From Staphylococcus phage S-CoN_Ph3, in the sequence record OR354826.1: a DNA stretch of 64,000 nucleotides, one strand, 5' to 3'. Position numbers and translations under genes: made by a program. Below, piece after piece: positions 9,191-43,679 of this stretch. Under the pieces are notes generated by a model. The model did no database searches. It was not told the DNA's origin and saw only the letters and a list, made by a program, of their open reading frames with translations. How positions within the stretch are numbered: the first letter of the stretch is position 1; each line of letters opens with the position of its first letter.

Positions 9191-9757
9191 ATGAAAGAAA
9201 TTTGGAAAGATATTCCTAATTATGAAGGATATTATCAAATTAGTAGTTTAGGAAGAGTTAAAAGTTTAGAAAGACATATTGTTTATAAAGATGGCAGAGA
9301 AAGAACTTATCCTAGTGTAATAATTTCTAATAGAGTCGGTACCAATGGTATGGAATTATGTACTTTGACTAAAAACAATAGAAAAAAGAATATAGAAATT
9401 CATAGAATGGTTTCTATTGTTTTTATAGGAGATTGTCCTAAAGGGTATGATATATGTCATATTGATGGTAATTGCTTAAATAACAATATTAATAATTTAA
9501 AATATGACACTCGTTCAGAAAATAGAATAGATAATTATAGATATGGCGGAAAAGCAAGTACAGGAAAATTAAATATAAAACAAGTATTAGAAATAAGACA
9601 TAAATATAAACATGAAAAATATACTTATAAACAATTATCTGATATTTATGATATTGGGATAACGCAAATAGGTAGAATAATAAGAAGAGAAGCATATACT
9701 TGGTTAAATGATAATGGGGAAATAGAAAAATCTTTAACAGAAATTAAATCTTGTTAA
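9191..9757 (+). CDS. free-standing HNH homing endonuclease (NUMOD4-like N-terminus plus HNH_3-like domain)
   Basis: MKEIWKDIPNYEGYYQISSLGRVKSL N-terminal motif; CHIDGNCLNNNINNL HNH region; close paralogue of the intron ORF at 40842-41390. Confidence 0.7.
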   Translation: MKEIWKDIPNYEGYYQISSLGRVKSLERHIVYKDGRERTYPSVIISNRVGTNGMELCTLTKNNRKKNIEIHRMVSIVFIGDCPKGYDICHIDGNCLNNNINNLKYDTRSENRIDNYRYGGKASTGKLNIKQVLEIRHKYKHEKYTYKQLSDIYDIGITQIGRIIRREAYTWLNDNGEIEKSLTEIKSC

Positions 9758-11183: not shown

Positions 11184-11257
11184 CAGAATGTAGTTCAATT
11201 TGGTAGAATACCACATTTGGGATGTGGTGGTTGTTGGTTCAAATCCAGCCATTCTGA
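11184..11257 (+). tRNA. tRNA-Pro (anticodon UGG) candidate
   Basis: 7-bp acceptor CAGAATG/CATTCTG, D-arm GTTC..GAAT with GG loop, anticodon stem CCACA/TGTGG with loop TTTGGGA (G37), T-arm GTTGG-TTCAAAT-CCAGC, discriminator A; no encoded CCA. Confidence 0.65.
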
Positions 11258-39342: not shown

Positions 39343-39867
39343 ATGGCTATTATTAAAACATTTGATAAAGAAAAACAACAATGGTTAGAAGTCTTTGCTA
39401 GACCAGTTGCTGAAGAAGTAGTTAAGATAATGAAAGATGATTGGTTATCTAATAAGAAAACAATTGACTATTGGTTATTACAATATACAGAGGGGGTAGC
39501 CGAGCCTATACAAGTTGCTATATTTACTGATGGCAATGAAGTTGATGATACGCTAAAAAGTAATTTAGAATGGGCTTTTAACGATTATATATCTGGCTTG
39601 GAAAATAAGAAATTATTTAACTTACAAGATTTTATAAATGATTGTCATAGCAGAAAAATAGATTTGCCTAAACAATTTAAAGTTAATGCCACAGTTCAAT
39701 TTGACAGTTTAGACTATCCTATTCATTTGCAAGAAATAGACAATATGACTACTAATGTTGATGTAATAGGTATGTTAGATGAATCTTCTAAAGGTTCAAT
39801 TGAAGTGAAATATATTTACAATGACCACCCTATAGAAGATAAAAAATTAGTAAAAGAAAATAAATAG
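39343..39867 (+). CDS. hypothetical protein (174 aa)
   Basis: ORF between holin and endolysin. Confidence 0.45.
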   Translation: MAIIKTFDKEKQQWLEVFARPVAEEVVKIMKDDWLSNKKTIDYWLLQYTEGVAEPIQVAIFTDGNEVDDTLKSNLEWAFNDYISGLENKKLFNLQDFINDCHSRKIDLPKQFKVNATVQFDSLDYPIHLQEIDNMTTNVDVIGMLDESSKGSIEVKYIYNDHPIEDKKLVKENK

Positions 39868-39879
39868 GAGGGGTAATAT

Positions 39880-39967
39880 ATGGTAGCAACTTTAACGCAT
39901 AAAGAAGCCGTAGAATATGTTAAATCATTAGAAGGAAAATATGTTGACTTTGATGGTTGGTATGGGT
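39880..39967 (+). CDS. endolysin exon 1 (start of CHAP domain)
   Basis: MVATLTHKEAVEYVKSLEGKYVDFDGWYG matches LysK-like CHAP start up to the residues just before the catalytic Cys. Confidence 0.55.
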
Positions 39968-40242
39968 TAATTGGTAGCCCATGTAAAACTTTTTGAATTG
40001 CTGGAAACCCCTAACGTAAAGACGAGGGCAATCAGCAGCGAAGCTCACATGGTAACAGTGTGTGAACGTTCAACGACTATGTACTATCAATTGATAGGCA
40101 GCGGAAAGCACATTTAATATATGTGATGATATAGTCTGGTCTCATATGAAAATATGAGGCTTTCTTTATGAAAGCTATTAAATGTTATGCAATATTATAT
40201 AGAAATATATAATAGGAAAGGTATTTAATAAAACAAAAAACG
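39968..40242 (+). mobile_element. ORF-less group I intron (about 275 nt) in endolysin CHAP domain
   Basis: R-like GTTCAACGACTA (about 40066) and S-like GATATAGTCTGG (about 40127); 5' exon ends in U, intron ends in G; splicing gives WYG-Y-QCFDL. Confidence 0.55.
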
Positions 40243-40761
40243 ACCAATGTTTTGATTTAGCTAACAAATATTGGAATAAATTATTTGGTGGACAATTAAA
40301 AGGTCAAGGCGCAGCTGATATTCCTAATGTTAATGATTTTAGTGGAAAAGCTACTGTTTATCAAAATACAACAAGTTTCTTAGCAAAACCAGGAGATATT
40401 GTTGTATGGGGTAGAAACTTTGGTCAAGGATATGGTCATGTAGCAGTTGTTGTTGAAGCAACATTAGATTATATTGTTGTAATTGAGAATAACTGGTTAG
40501 GTGGTGGATGGACTAGTGGACCAGCACAAGGTGGTACTGGTTGGGAAAAAGCAACTAGACGCCGTCACAATTACGAGTCTCTTATGTGGTTCATCAGACC
40601 AAAATACAAAGACGAGAAAAAAACTGCTAATTATTCTGCTAAAACTAAAACGAAAAAACCAGCTGCTAAAAAGAAAAAAGCTAAAGAAATAAAACACATT
40701 AAAGATACAGTTAACGGTTATAAATTACCAAAACGTAACGGTAAATTAAAAGGTGTCGTGT
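40243..40761 (+). CDS. endolysin exon 2 (CHAP catalytic core plus linker)
   Basis: QCFDLANKYW (catalytic Cys), GQGYGHVAVV (catalytic His), lysine-rich linker. Confidence 0.6.
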
Positions 40762-41716
40762 AAAATGCCTATAAATTAATTGACTTTTTTATTTCTTTAT
40801 GATATAATGACTATATATTTATATATATAGGAGGATATTATATGAAAGAAATTTGGAAAGATGTTCCTAATTATGAAGGAAAATATCAAGTGTCTAATAA
40901 AGGAAGAGTTAAATCAATTAAAAGAACAGTAAAACATAACGGGAGTAAAACTAGGACATTTCCAGAAAAGATTTTAAAACCAAACAAAGTGTCTTTTGAT
41001 TATTTACAGGTCACATTATATAATAATGGTAAAAGAAAATGTAGATATATACACAATTTAGTTATGGAATCTTTTATTGGTAAGAAGCCAAACGGTTATG
41101 AAGTTAACCATATAGACGAAGATAAATCTAATAATCAATTAGAAAATTTAGAATATATAACAAGAAAAGAAAACAATAATTATGGAACTCGAATAGAACG
41201 GATGATTAAATCAAACGTTAATGGTAAAAAGAGTAAAAAAGTCAAAGGGACCCATTTAAAAACAGGAGAAATAGTTATTTTTCCATCAATATCCGAAGCG
41301 CAAAGACAAGGATATGGACCAAAAATATCAGAAGTTTGTAATGGAAAAAGAAACCATTCTGGTGGTTATAAATGGGAATTTATAAAATAGCACTGCATAA
41401 GTAGGAAACTCTTATGTACTAAAAACATAAATTGCTTAGAAGAACCTTAGAGCCTTAATGCCACAATATAGCTGAAAAGACTGTATGAAGGATTAAAAAG
41501 TTTAAGGATTGGTTTGTTTAGCATCGCTACTCCTAAGTTTTTTAGATACGGAGAACGTTCAACGACTAGACGATTGGCTCGTCGTAGGGTTTAAGTAAAC
41601 TCGAAAGAAGAACTACCTAAGTATTTTATATATGGTAGAAAGATATAGTCTGGACACGCCTTGTAATGGGGGTGCTAGGAATCGACCTAGAGTTAGATTA
41701 ACGACCTAATGAAACG
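40762..41716 (+). mobile_element. group I intron carrying an HNH homing endonuclease ORF
   Basis: same R (GAACGTTCAACGACTAGA, about 41553) and S (GATATAGTCTGGA, about 41644) elements as the first lysin intron; intron ends ...AACG; splicing gives KGVV-F-SIHNDAG. Confidence 0.55.
40842..41390 (+). CDS. HNH homing endonuclease (intron-encoded; NUMOD4-like plus HNH_3-like)
   Basis: MKEIWKDVPNYEGKYQVSNKGRVKSI; paralogue of 9191-9757. Confidence 0.7.
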   Translation: MKEIWKDVPNYEGKYQVSNKGRVKSIKRTVKHNGSKTRTFPEKILKPNKVSFDYLQVTLYNNGKRKCRYIHNLVMESFIGKKPNGYEVNHIDEDKSNNQLENLEYITRKENNNYGTRIERMIKSNVNGKKSKKVKGTHLKTGEIVIFPSISEAQRQGYGPKISEVCNGKRNHSGGYKWEFIK

Positions 41717-42564
41717 TCTCGATACACAACGATGCTGGAAGTAAATATGCAACAGCAGAAGCCTATCGTAATGGATTAGTCAATGCTCCATTATCAAGAC
41801 TTGAAGCAGGTATAGCACATGCTTACGGTTCTGGTAATACAATTTGGCAAGCATTAGACAAATCACAGGTAGGTTGGCATACAGCAAATCCTGTTGGTAA
41901 TAACGGTTATTATGGTTATGAAGTTTGTCAGTCTATGGGTGCAGATGATAAAACATTCTTAGCGAATGAGCAGTTAATATTCCAAGATGCTGCTAGACTT
42001 TTAAAAGAAGAAGGATTACCAGCAAATAGAAACACTGTTCGTCTACATTGTGAATTTGTTCGTACTTCATGTCCACATAGAAGTGCTAAGTTACACACAG
42101 GATTTGACCCTGTCACTCAAGGTTTATTACCTAAAGACAAACAACTAAAATTAAAAGATTATTTTATCAAACAAATCAGACAATATATGGACGGTAAAAT
42201 ACCTACTGCAACAGTTGTTAAAAGTTCAAGTGCTTCTAGCAACACTGTTAAACCAGTAGCATCTGGTTGGAAACGTAATAATTATGGTACTTATTACAAA
42301 TCAGAAAATGCAACTTATAGCAATGGCAACACACCAATTATCACACGTACAGTAGGACCATTTAGAAGTTGTGCTCAGGCAGGATTATTACCAGCCGGAG
42401 CATCTATTATATATGATACAGTTTGTCTACAAGACTATCATGTTTGGGTAAGTTATGTAACTAACAAAGGTTACAGAGTATGGCTACCTATTAGAACATG
42501 GAATGGTGTAGCTCCTGGAAACGCAGGATATGCTGTAGGACCATTATGGGGATATATCAGCTAA
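41717..42564 (+). CDS. endolysin exon 3 (amidase_2 plus SH3b cell-wall binding domains)
   Basis: IHNDAGS...[10 protein letters not shown]...[20 protein letters not shown]...SH3b-like C-terminus; collinear with LysK. Confidence 0.65.
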
Positions 42565-42698
42565 AATAAAAGACAGGTTTTATTCTGTATAAAAGTCGTC
42601 AACCATGCGCTTTATAAGCGTTTTGCTAGGCGCACCTAAATTTTTTACCCTCTACTTTTTATGTAGGGGGTGTTTACATATTAATGGAGGTTATTATA

Positions 42699-43679
42699 AT
42701 GGAAAGAAACAATATTTATAGTGAAGAAATATATAAAAAAGTAAATGATGAATCAAAAGAGCTTTTAAATGATTATATATTAGAGTTAAAGGTTCGTAAT
42801 CGAGCAGAAAAGACAATTACACAATATGAATTTGATTGTAAAATGTTTATGTGTTATGTTTATGATAACATGAACAACAAATCATTACTTGATTTAAAAC
42901 GCCGAGATTTTAGGAATTTCTTTTTATTCTTAAAAGAGAGTGGAAAATCAGCAGCAAGAATCAACCGTGTTCAATCTTCAATAAGAAATCTCTTACAGTT
43001 TGCCGAAGACGACGAAGAAATATACGAAGATTATGAAGTTAATCCTATGAGAAAAATTAAATCAGTTGAGAAAGAACCTGTTAGAGAGATTGTGTTCTTA
43101 ACAGATGAACAAGTTACTTATTTAATTAATTATTTATTAGAGAAAGGTAAAACACAAAAAGCATTGTTTGTTAGTTTTGCTTATGATAGCGTAGCTCGTA
43201 GAAATGAAATATCACAAGTTCAAAAATATAGTTTCCAAGACACAACTAAATCAAGCACTAACGAAGTTGTGGGTAAACGTGGAAAGAAATTTAAGTTAAT
43301 GTATTCTCAGCGTACTAAAGACCTTGCTAAAGAATGGCTGTCTGAACGTGGAGAAGATGATGTTGATAGCTTGTGGATAAGTTACTATAATGGTAAACCA
43401 CGTGCTATTGTATATGACACATTTTATTCTTGGGCTATATCATTTAGAAGTATATTAGAAGAAAAATACGATGTAGATTTACCATTAAATGCTCACTCGT
43501 TCCGTCATAGTGGAGCTGAGAATTATGAAAATGGTACACATAGCTCATTACAATTTATGGGTAAAGATAGCTTAAACATAAACGAACTAAAAATATTAAT
43601 GAATCATGAAAGTATTGATATTACTAATAGTTATTTAAGAAATAAAGACCAAGAAATATTGGAAAATTTATTCTCATAA
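42699..43679 (+). CDS. tyrosine recombinase / integrase (XerD-like)
   Basis: N-terminal SAM-like domain; catalytic R (VARRNEI), HxxR (HSFRHS), H (MNHES), Y (NSYL); GGAGGT RBS before ATG 42699. Confidence 0.6.
   Translation: MERNNIYSEEIYKKVNDESKELLNDYILELKVRNRAEKTITQYEFDCKMFMCYVYDNMNNKSLLDLKRRDFRNFFLFLKESGKSAARINRVQSSIRNLLQFAEDDEEIYEDYEVNPMRKIKSVEKEPVREIVFLTDEQVTYLINYLLEKGKTQKALFVSFAYDSVARRNEISQVQKYSFQDTTKSSTNEVVGKRGKKFKLMYSQRTKDLAKEWLSERGEDDVDSLWISYYNGKPRAIVYDTFYSWAISFRSILEEKYDVDLPLNAHSFRHSGAENYENGTHSSLQFMGKDSLNINELKILMNHESIDITNSYLRNKDQEILENLFS

Follow-up and report, generated by a model that had tools for sequence, protein, structure and literature searches.

The endolysin locus

The DNA analysed here, referred to throughout as the window, is a stretch of 64,000 nucleotides (nt) from Staphylococcus phage S-CoN_Ph3 (sequence record OR354826.1; one strand, 5' to 3'), and the endolysin gene that lies between its positions 39880 and 42564 is the subject of this report. 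Across 39800-42700 the window is 99.9% identical to Staphylococcus phage S-CoN_Ph13, a member of Sextaecvirus, and 97-99.7% identical to CF1, BE22, CF9, Ph11 and 6ec, all of the same genus. Deposited records (S-CoN_Ph13, 6ec, SEP9, BE22, CF9 and others) present the region as separate coding sequences (CDSs) for an 'endolysin', a 'hypothetical protein' and an 'HNH endonuclease', and none of the Sextaecvirus records that we inspected contains a joined CDS or an intron feature. Our interpretation, to which we assign a probability of roughly 0.85, is that these pieces form one endolysin gene of three exons, split by two mobile group I introns of separate ancestry (Table 1).

The open reading frame (ORF) at 39880..39996 opens as a CHAP domain (MVATLTHKEAVEYVKSLEGKYVDFDGWYG, ending ...DFDGWYG) and then drifts into LIGSPCKTF before its stop codon, the coding part of exon 1 ending just upstream of the catalytic cysteine. 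The CHAP frame reopens at 40243/40245 as (Y)QCFDL and stays open to KGVV, with a stop at 40763, and the coding sequence for IHNDAG, the motif at the start of the Amidase_2 domain that holds a zinc-binding histidine, begins at 41722. An initial annotation, made from the sequence alone, had proposed three exons and two group I-type introns from the same DFDGWYG end, QCFDL restart at 40243 and KGVV stop, all of which we recover; the amidase restart that it placed at 41717 survives as one candidate start for exon 3. When the three pieces are joined, a single predicted polypeptide of ~482 amino acids (aa) carries Pfam matches to CHAP (4e-10), Amidase_2 (2e-6) and SH3_5 (1e-18), and this product aligns end to end, across both junctions, with solved staphylococcal lysin domains (PDB 4ols, 8h1i and 2mk5). 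At junction 1 the spliced window sequence reads GWYGYQCFDL, the predicted nucleotide sequence being GGTATGGGT↓ACCAATGT (here and below an arrow marks the point of exon joining or intron insertion).

Alleles that lack one or the other intron are found among the relatives, in agreement with the structure first proposed. Ph10 lacks intron 1 and reads GGT TGG TAT GGA ATG CAA TGT, such that GWYGMQCFDL is uninterrupted. SEP9 and Ph14 are uninterrupted across the site of intron 2, with Ph14 reading AAA GGA ATA GTT ATA CAC (KGIVIH); the Ph14-type intron-less target sequence at this site is AAAGGAATAGTTATACACAATGATGCC.

The pattern of variation in the exons points the same way. The first in-frame ATG, GTG or TTG of exon 2 is found only at 40584, and that of exon 3 only at 41935. 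In a comparison of five relatives, the third codon position of the lysin frame accounts for 14 of the 16 variable sites in 40245-40583 and for 23 of the 27 in 41722-41934. Because variation sits almost wholly at third codon positions, we conclude that these start-less segments are translated in the lysin frame, and therefore that they must be joined to the upstream exons, with both introns removed. We count the sequence anatomy, the intron-less alleles, this codon-position signature and the covariation described below as direct observations.

These data bear on the reading implied by the GenBank records, whose separate CDSs and lack of any joined CDS or intron feature would suit a lysis cassette of several genes, with a free-standing HNH gene and intergenic DNA between them. 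Such a cassette would include a first gene of only 29 residues that stops just before the catalytic cysteine, and second and third coding segments that have no start codon at their beginnings. It would also leave aside the Rfam score of intron 1 (95 bits), the continuous ORF restored in the intron-less alleles and the codon-position signature of the exons, and we regard it as the least probable of the explanations considered here, with very little chance of being correct.

Several of the S-CoN_Ph records (Ph10, and also Ph17 and Ph11) contain single-base gaps relative to the window, together with broken ORFs, in this region. Those of Ph10 (positions 581-1108 of the compared stretch) fall at window positions 40617 and 40674, in the A-rich lysine linker. 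The gaps look like assembly errors, and gap-bearing records were used only where other genomes agreed.

Table 1. Predicted features of the S-CoN_Ph3 endolysin locus (window coordinates).
Feature	Position	Strand	Evidence and remarks
Endolysin gene, three exons	39880-42564	+	CHAP-Amidase_2-SH3b
Exon 1	39880..39967	+	Codes for MVATLTHKEAVEYVKSLEGKYVDFDGWYG (29 residues) and supplies base 1 of the following codon
Intron 1, group I, no ORF, 275 nt	39968..40242	+	RF00028, 95.2 bits; allele without the intron in Ph10
Exon 2	40243..40760	+	Remainder of CHAP including the catalytic cysteine, and lysine-rich linker; 3' end uncertain (40755, 40760 or 40761)
Intron 2, 961 nt	40761..41721	+	Alternatives 40756-41716 and 40762-41716; 5' leader, promoter, HNH ORF and ribozyme core
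Sigma-70-like promoter in intron 2	40780..40808	+	TTGACT, 17 nt, TG-TATAAT; upstream of the HNH ORF
HNH homing endonuclease ORF, 182 aa	40842..41390	+	In the P1 loop, flanked by the 5' splice site and the internal guide sequence
Intron 2 ribozyme part, ~330 nt	41390..41721	+	RF00028, 24.4 bits; RNAalifold and pair counts
Exon 3	41722..42564	+	Amidase_2 from IHNDAG, SH3_5 wall-binding domain, stop codon; alternative start 41717

Intron 1

The boundaries initially annotated for intron 1 (39968-40242), behind a 5' exon that ends in U (U39967), are retained here. Covariance-model comparison, suggested with the initial annotation as a check, matches 39958-40158 to positions 1-253 of the Rfam group I catalytic intron model (RF00028, 253 positions long) with 95.2 bits (E 2.9e-23), against a gathering score of 50 bits. 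We do not share the view that 275 nt is unusually small for such an intron, given the length of the model and the matches of 225-287 nt in the introns of Twort orf142.

In P1, 39962-39969 pairs with 39975-39982 (AUGGGU↓UA with UAGCCCAU), placing U39967 opposite G39977, and 39970-39975 (AUUGGU) is fully complementary to the first bases of exon 2, 40243-40248 (ACCAAU), giving a P10 of 6 base pairs. The terminal G of the intron is G40242, and its R and S elements lie at 40064-40079 and 40128-40139. The structure was aligned over the copies in the window, SEP9, 6ec and PMBT8, with two-sided changes counted relative to PMBT8. The model of P1 and P3-P9.2 that emerges has 84 pairs, is 99.4% paired and includes 21 pairs changed on both sides, a number reached in none of 500 shuffles; sliding the partner by 1-3 columns leaves only 32-49% paired.

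A 317-nt variant of intron 1, with a longer P8 as its sole difference, is present in 6ec (positions 669-985 of the compared stretch), CF9, Ph14 and Ph11. More distant is a homologue in PMBT8 (~2511-2825 of the compared stretch), ~70% identical, which interrupts a different lysin, with an Amidase_3 domain, at GHG↓YNDPGAV. The PMBT8 copy has the same exon end, AUGGGU↓, and keeps P1, and its P10 is re-tuned to GUUAU/AUAAC for its own 3' exon; window site 1 and the PMBT8 site have only the exon end AUGGGU↓A in common. The sequences suggest that the intron 1 lineage may move by means of its internal guide sequence rather than by an endonuclease.

Both the 317-nt variant and the PMBT8 copy (~2660-2720) contain a consensus promoter, TTGACA-17 nt-TATAAT, in the P8 loop. 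This promoter may be what is left of an endonuclease cassette, or it may serve the downstream exons.

Intron 2

Over its full length (leader, ORF and 330 nt of 3' non-coding sequence), intron 2 is 75-76% identical to the lysin introns of the S. aureus phages X2 and Mh15, the S. capitis phage StB20 and the Twortvirinae phages P68 and the PG-2021 series; the lysin of P68 resembles LysK. A 332-nt copy that has no ORF occupies the same site, with the same boundaries, in the myovirus PSU6. Because the PSU6 copy lacks the ORF, we take the HNH ORF to have been inserted into the loop that separates the 5' splice site from the candidate guide sequence of intron 2, GCACU at 41390-41394, which overlaps the stop codon of the ORF.

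Elements resembling R, S, P and Q are all present in intron 2, with R at 41553-41568, S at 41642-41653, and either G41716 or G41721 as the candidate terminal G. RNAalifold and pair counts support the helices P1, P2, P4-P6, P7, P7.1, P7.2, P8, P9, P9.1 and P9.2, as well as an extra helix in which A(C/U)GUU, immediately ahead of the R element, pairs with AAC(G/A)U close to the 3' end. The fraction of paired cells in this model is 97.4%, compensatory changes occur in 14 pairs, and the helices are kept across four lineages.

The intron 2 splice junction

Applying the rule that the 5' exon ends in U and the intron in G gives four in-frame options in the window, with products that differ in length by -2 to +3 residues from what the KG-xx-IHNDAG spacing, found in all homologues, would give. 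The junction chosen in the initial annotation, after U40761 and between 41716 and 41717, is one of the four; it is in frame and canonical, with a spliced sequence of GTCGTGT↓TCTCGATACAC and the product KGVVFSIHNDAG. It adds two residues relative to every homologue (KGVV-FS-IHNDAG), and when its cleavage rule is applied to the homologues of intron 2 in X2, StB20 and P68, the reading frame is lost.

For X2 and StB20, only one combination is both in frame and G-terminal; it cleaves after GG(C/U)G, one base before the guide-paired U, and P68 is also compatible with cleavage at this position. P1 of intron 2 would be formed by the exon sequence GG(U/C)GU and GC(A/G)CU just 3' of the ORF, with one compensatory change, in X2. 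Two registers in the window fit the homologues, both giving a product of consensus length. The X2-type register (40755↓40756 with 41716↓41717) gives KGVSIH, from the spliced sequence AAAGGTG↓TCTCGATACAC. In its favour are a longer P1 (GGUGU), a 3' end of AAACG↓ as in intron 1, PMBT8, PSU6 site 1, X2 and StB20, the third-codon position of the one base at which the window and 6ec differ close to the junction (41718 C>T), and the retention of the P1 exon strand in Ph11. The P68-type register (40760↓40761 with 41721↓41722) gives KGVVIH, from GGTGTCGTG↓ATACAC; here both ends align with P68, valine is conserved at that position, and the chimeric sequence of Ph11, described below, treats GUCGU as exon. 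The claim that both 5' exons can end in U holds for intron 1; for intron 2 a terminal U is possible in frame, but the registers that fit the homologues give G.

We have used the P68-type register in Table 1 as a tentative choice, itself well short of even odds. The X2-type register and the junction of the initial annotation are both somewhat less probable, neither being preferred over the other, and the chance that splicing takes place at some other position is smaller again. We also entertain, as a doubtful but possible idea, that the site-2 lineage (intron 2 of the window, X2, StB20 and P68) cleaves after a C-paired G one base upstream of the U•G wobble, and that the window copy, with its two in-frame registers 5 nt apart, is a living intermediate of intron sliding.

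Two other routes to the junction were set aside. A guide upstream of the ORF (AUGCCU at 40764-40769, pairing with AGGUGU), which would give the canonical junction 40754↓40755 with 41721↓41722, was ranked low; its product, KG↓IHNDAG, loses two residues before IHNDAG, and the pairing is in no homologue. Transfer of the junction from phage K failed, since the lysK intron lies at another site (WHTG↓DG).

Evidence for and against splicing of intron 2

Several observations on intron 2 weigh against our interpretation. Its RF00028 score of 24.4 bits is under the gathering score (E 8e-4 in a 1.1-kilobase (kb) search and 0.047 over the whole window), and the copy in PSU6, a homologue of the P68/PSU6 type, gave no RF00028 match at E values up to 10. 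No convincing P3 helix was obtained by Rfam alignment, RNAalifold, constrained folding or comparison with Twort. In both homologue-fitting junctions the last exon G stands opposite C, with the U•G pair one base further on, an arrangement that is non-canonical for group I introns. Lastly, scans of viral and metagenome contigs returned no exact match to the spliced exon 2/exon 3 junction; a looser junction pattern returned unrelated sequences and one intron-less KGVVIHNDAG lysin from another phage. When viral contigs were scanned for new exon contexts of intron 2, all nine matches were of the X2 type.

The sub-threshold Rfam score, the missing P3 and the non-canonical-looking 5' splice site would also fit an intron that splices poorly or no longer, in a phage that relies on the CHAP-linker product of exons 1 and 2 (ending at KGVV) and leaves its amidase-SH3b segment unjoined. 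Exon 2 meets a natural stop codon directly once the CHAP domain is complete, LysK truncated to its CHAP domain is lytic, and in Golestan-105-M the ribozyme is deleted and the amidase-SH3b segment has its own ATG, all of which we count towards this possibility. Set against it are the third-position bias of the start-less 41722-41934 segment (23/27 variable sites), the compensatory changes by which the ribozyme helices are kept across four lineages, and the ORF-less PSU6 copy of 332 nt with the same boundaries. We think it improbable that splicing has been lost to this extent, although of the explanations that compete with a three-exon gene split by two introns it is the one to which we give the most weight.

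Two relatives show rearrangements at this site. In Ph11 (~1495-1525 of the compared stretch; window 40759-40771), 16 nt of exon 3 sequence of the intron-less type (TATACACAA-GATGCCG) stand in place of GTAAAATGCCT, the start of intron 2, which looks like the result of recombination between intron-plus and intron-minus alleles at ATGCC microhomology. In Golestan-105-M (~1000-1170 of the compared stretch), the site-2 intron is cut down to a remnant of ~170 nt from which the ribozyme is gone, consisting of the leader, the promoter and the first ~22 HNH codons fused to the last 12 nt. The fusion creates the ATG of MRNIRIHNDAG.., and CHAP and amidase-SH3b appear to be separate genes in this phage. 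Decay of this kind could plausibly turn an intron-split lysin into one encoded by two genes.

Relationship between the two introns

The initial annotation drew attention to near-identical R and S elements in the two introns, and from these proposed that the same core had been copied to two sites in the gene. The elements themselves are present as described: in the window the R string GTTCAACGACTA occurs only at 40068 and 41557 (0.01 chance matches expected) and the S string GATATAGTCTGG only at 40128 and 41642. As a sign of copying they do not serve, since R and S match the Rfam group I consensus. Alignment of the two cores, the check that had been suggested for this proposal, speaks against it: the best local alignment of the introns consists of the 16-nt R element alone, with a score of 32, compared with 180-384 for each intron against its own relatives. 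For intron 1 the scores are 180 with the PMBT8 intron, 66 with the CHAP-site intron of PSU6 and 56 with the site-3 intron of BE22 (sites are described below); for the intron 2 core they are 384 with X2 and 351 with P68.

A duplication within the gene, giving one minimal ORF-less copy and one ORF-bearing copy, would account for the identity of the 16-nt R (GAACGTTCAACGACTA) and 12-nt S elements, and for the C of GAACG that both window introns have where the X2 and P68 homologues of intron 2 have U. Limited gene conversion of the R element may have occurred. Beyond R and S, however, there is no alignable similarity, and the helices differ, P2, P7.2 and a long P5 extension being found in intron 2 and not in intron 1. 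Such a duplication is accordingly very improbable, and the sequence comparisons place introns 1 and 2 in different lineages, related only as members of one broad class.

The HNH endonuclease and its promoter

The HNH ORF of intron 2 matches NUMOD4 (62.8 bits, 3e-17) and HNH_3 (55.4 bits, 5e-15) in Pfam, both over their cut-offs, and the I-HmuI NUMOD-like domain at 20.6 bits (3e-4), under the cut-off. The protein is 74% identical to the P68 intron ORF and 72% identical to that of X2. The predicted promoter ahead of it is the best match in the region, with 11 of 12 positions and an extended -10 element. An endonuclease gene with its own early promoter has also been described for the differently placed lysK intron of Kayvirus (PMC7698491).

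The paralogy that had been proposed between this ORF and a second one at 9191 is borne out, the first 112 residues being 46% identical to the product of ORF 9191..9757 (E 3e-27). The latter is a free-standing ORF of the HNH/NUMOD4 type between two unrelated ORFs, and a search around it found no group I core at E values up to 0.1.

Other features in and around the gene

An Rfam match to S808 ('Staphylococcus sRNA 808') covers window positions 42120-42374 with 189 bits, and lies wholly inside the lysin coding sequence (linker and SH3b). S808 also matches every related lysin, and here the family probably reflects the coding sequence of prophage lysins, not a separate small RNA; we treated it as a coding-sequence match and set it aside from the intron finding. 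Directly downstream of the lysin, at 42684-43679, is an ORF resembling tyrosine recombinases or integrases, which relatives annotate as an integrase or site-specific recombinase, even though phages of this genus have been described as lytic. The window contains a single tRNA gene (11184-11257, 65.9 bits).

Proposed mechanism and significance

We infer from these comparisons that both introns self-splice, that the HNH protein is an active endonuclease, and where the exact junction of intron 2 lies. Transcription of the late lysis operon would yield a precursor RNA in which intron 1 folds as a compact ribozyme of the td/Twort type, its guide pairing both with AUGGGU at the end of exon 1 and with the six bases that open exon 2, and excises itself just upstream of the codon for the CHAP catalytic cysteine. 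Intron 2, a larger ribozyme with a promoter and an HNH/NUMOD4 gene in its P1 loop, would likewise excise itself just upstream of IHNDAG, and ligation of the exons would produce the messenger RNA for the ~482-aa CHAP, Amidase_2, SH3b lysin. The endonuclease presumably cuts intron-less lysin alleles of co-infecting phages, with repair copying the intron in, whereas intron 1, which has no endonuclease, appears to persist or move through a match to its guide sequence.

A curated catalogue of lysins enters 6ec as 'two genes spliced', giving it a concatenated protein of 308 aa under the label 'CHAP??', and SEP9 as a 'single gene' of 428 aa that begins at MPNVND and is without the catalytic cysteine (PMC6507118). 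From these entries it follows that intron 1 was overlooked and that the true exon structure was not given; the coarse 6ec entry is the only literature on Sextaecvirus lysin introns that we found. Group I introns in staphylococcal phage lysin genes, and phage genes with multiple introns, are already established kinds. In practice, anyone who wishes to clone these S. epidermidis lysins for antimicrobial use will need the correct three-exon sequence, where the Sextaecvirus records inspected give fragments. In addition, the genus has four lysin intron sites, each beside or inside a conserved CHAP or amidase motif, and its intron lineages are common to Sextaecvirus, myoviruses and temperate phages, so that intron homing, loss and decay could be studied in the Sextaecvirus lysin as a compact natural system. 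If true, the non-canonical 5' splice site of intron 2 bears on how group I ribozymes choose their cleavage site.

Comparison with known systems

Different isolates of Sextaecvirus have different subsets of the four lysin intron sites occupied, the window having introns at sites 1 (in CHAP, before the catalytic cysteine) and 2 (before IHNDAG). Site 3 is GIA↓HAY in the amidase (equivalent to window 41813↓41814), where BE22 (2516-3397) and Ph14 (~1595-2476) have an 882-nt intron that is absent from the window. This intron scores 77 bits against RF00028 and has AUCGCU↓ as a canonical 5' end, G as its last base and GCAUG/CAUGC as its P10. Downstream of its core, BE22 has an intact HNH ORF and Ph14 only a short fragment annotated as HNH. 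Site 4 is WHTA↓NP (equivalent to window ~41884), occupied by an 891-nt intron in CF9 (2626-3516). BE22 and CF9 have three lysin introns each. PSU6 and Golestan-105-M have a CHAP intron 9 nt upstream of window site 1, of a different lineage.

The lysin introns of phage 85, X2, Mh15, StB20, P68 and PG-2021 are of the same lineage as intron 2 of the window, with the same core helices and the same target, ..G(I/M/V)V↓IHNDAG. Phage 85 is listed among the staphylococcal phages with group I introns in their endolysin genes, of which there were 20 among 205 (PMC6507118). The window differs from the X2/P68-type carriers in its host phage, a Sextaecvirus siphovirus of ~90-100 kb. The insertion point in X2 and StB20 is 5 nt upstream of that in P68, and the window copy has in-frame candidates at both. 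Intron 2 of the window and 6ec also has a C/G pair between the J6/7 strand and the 3' tail, where other copies have U/A.

The lysK intron of phage K, with its ORF31 (lys-I1 / I-KsaI), likewise interrupts the gene of a staphylococcal CHAP-amidase-SH3b lysin as a group I intron that contains an HNH ORF; ORF30 and ORF32 are joined in the deposited record, and in related kayviruses the lysin gene is split by intron-encoded I-KsaI (PMC5618024). It is inserted at ..AWHTG↓DGTG (~2370-3250 in the compared stretch), which is neither of the window sites, and the ORF31 endonuclease is 27% identical to the window HNH protein and 53% identical to the site-4 endonuclease of CF9. Because it sits at the WHT(A/G)↓ motif and has its Sextaecvirus counterpart in the site-4 intron of CF9, which is missing from the window, we do not consider the phage K intron to be the homologue of intron 2.

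A precedent for several small group I introns in one staphylococcal phage gene is Twort orf142 (AF132670), the CDS of which is joined from four pieces and contains three RF00028 matches of 64-101 bits. The Twort introns share their R and S strings with intron 1 of the window, and the cores are td/Twort-like. The gene is a different one, encoding a tail-tube-like protein in a phage of a different family, and it has three introns compared with the two of the S-CoN_Ph3 endolysin gene.

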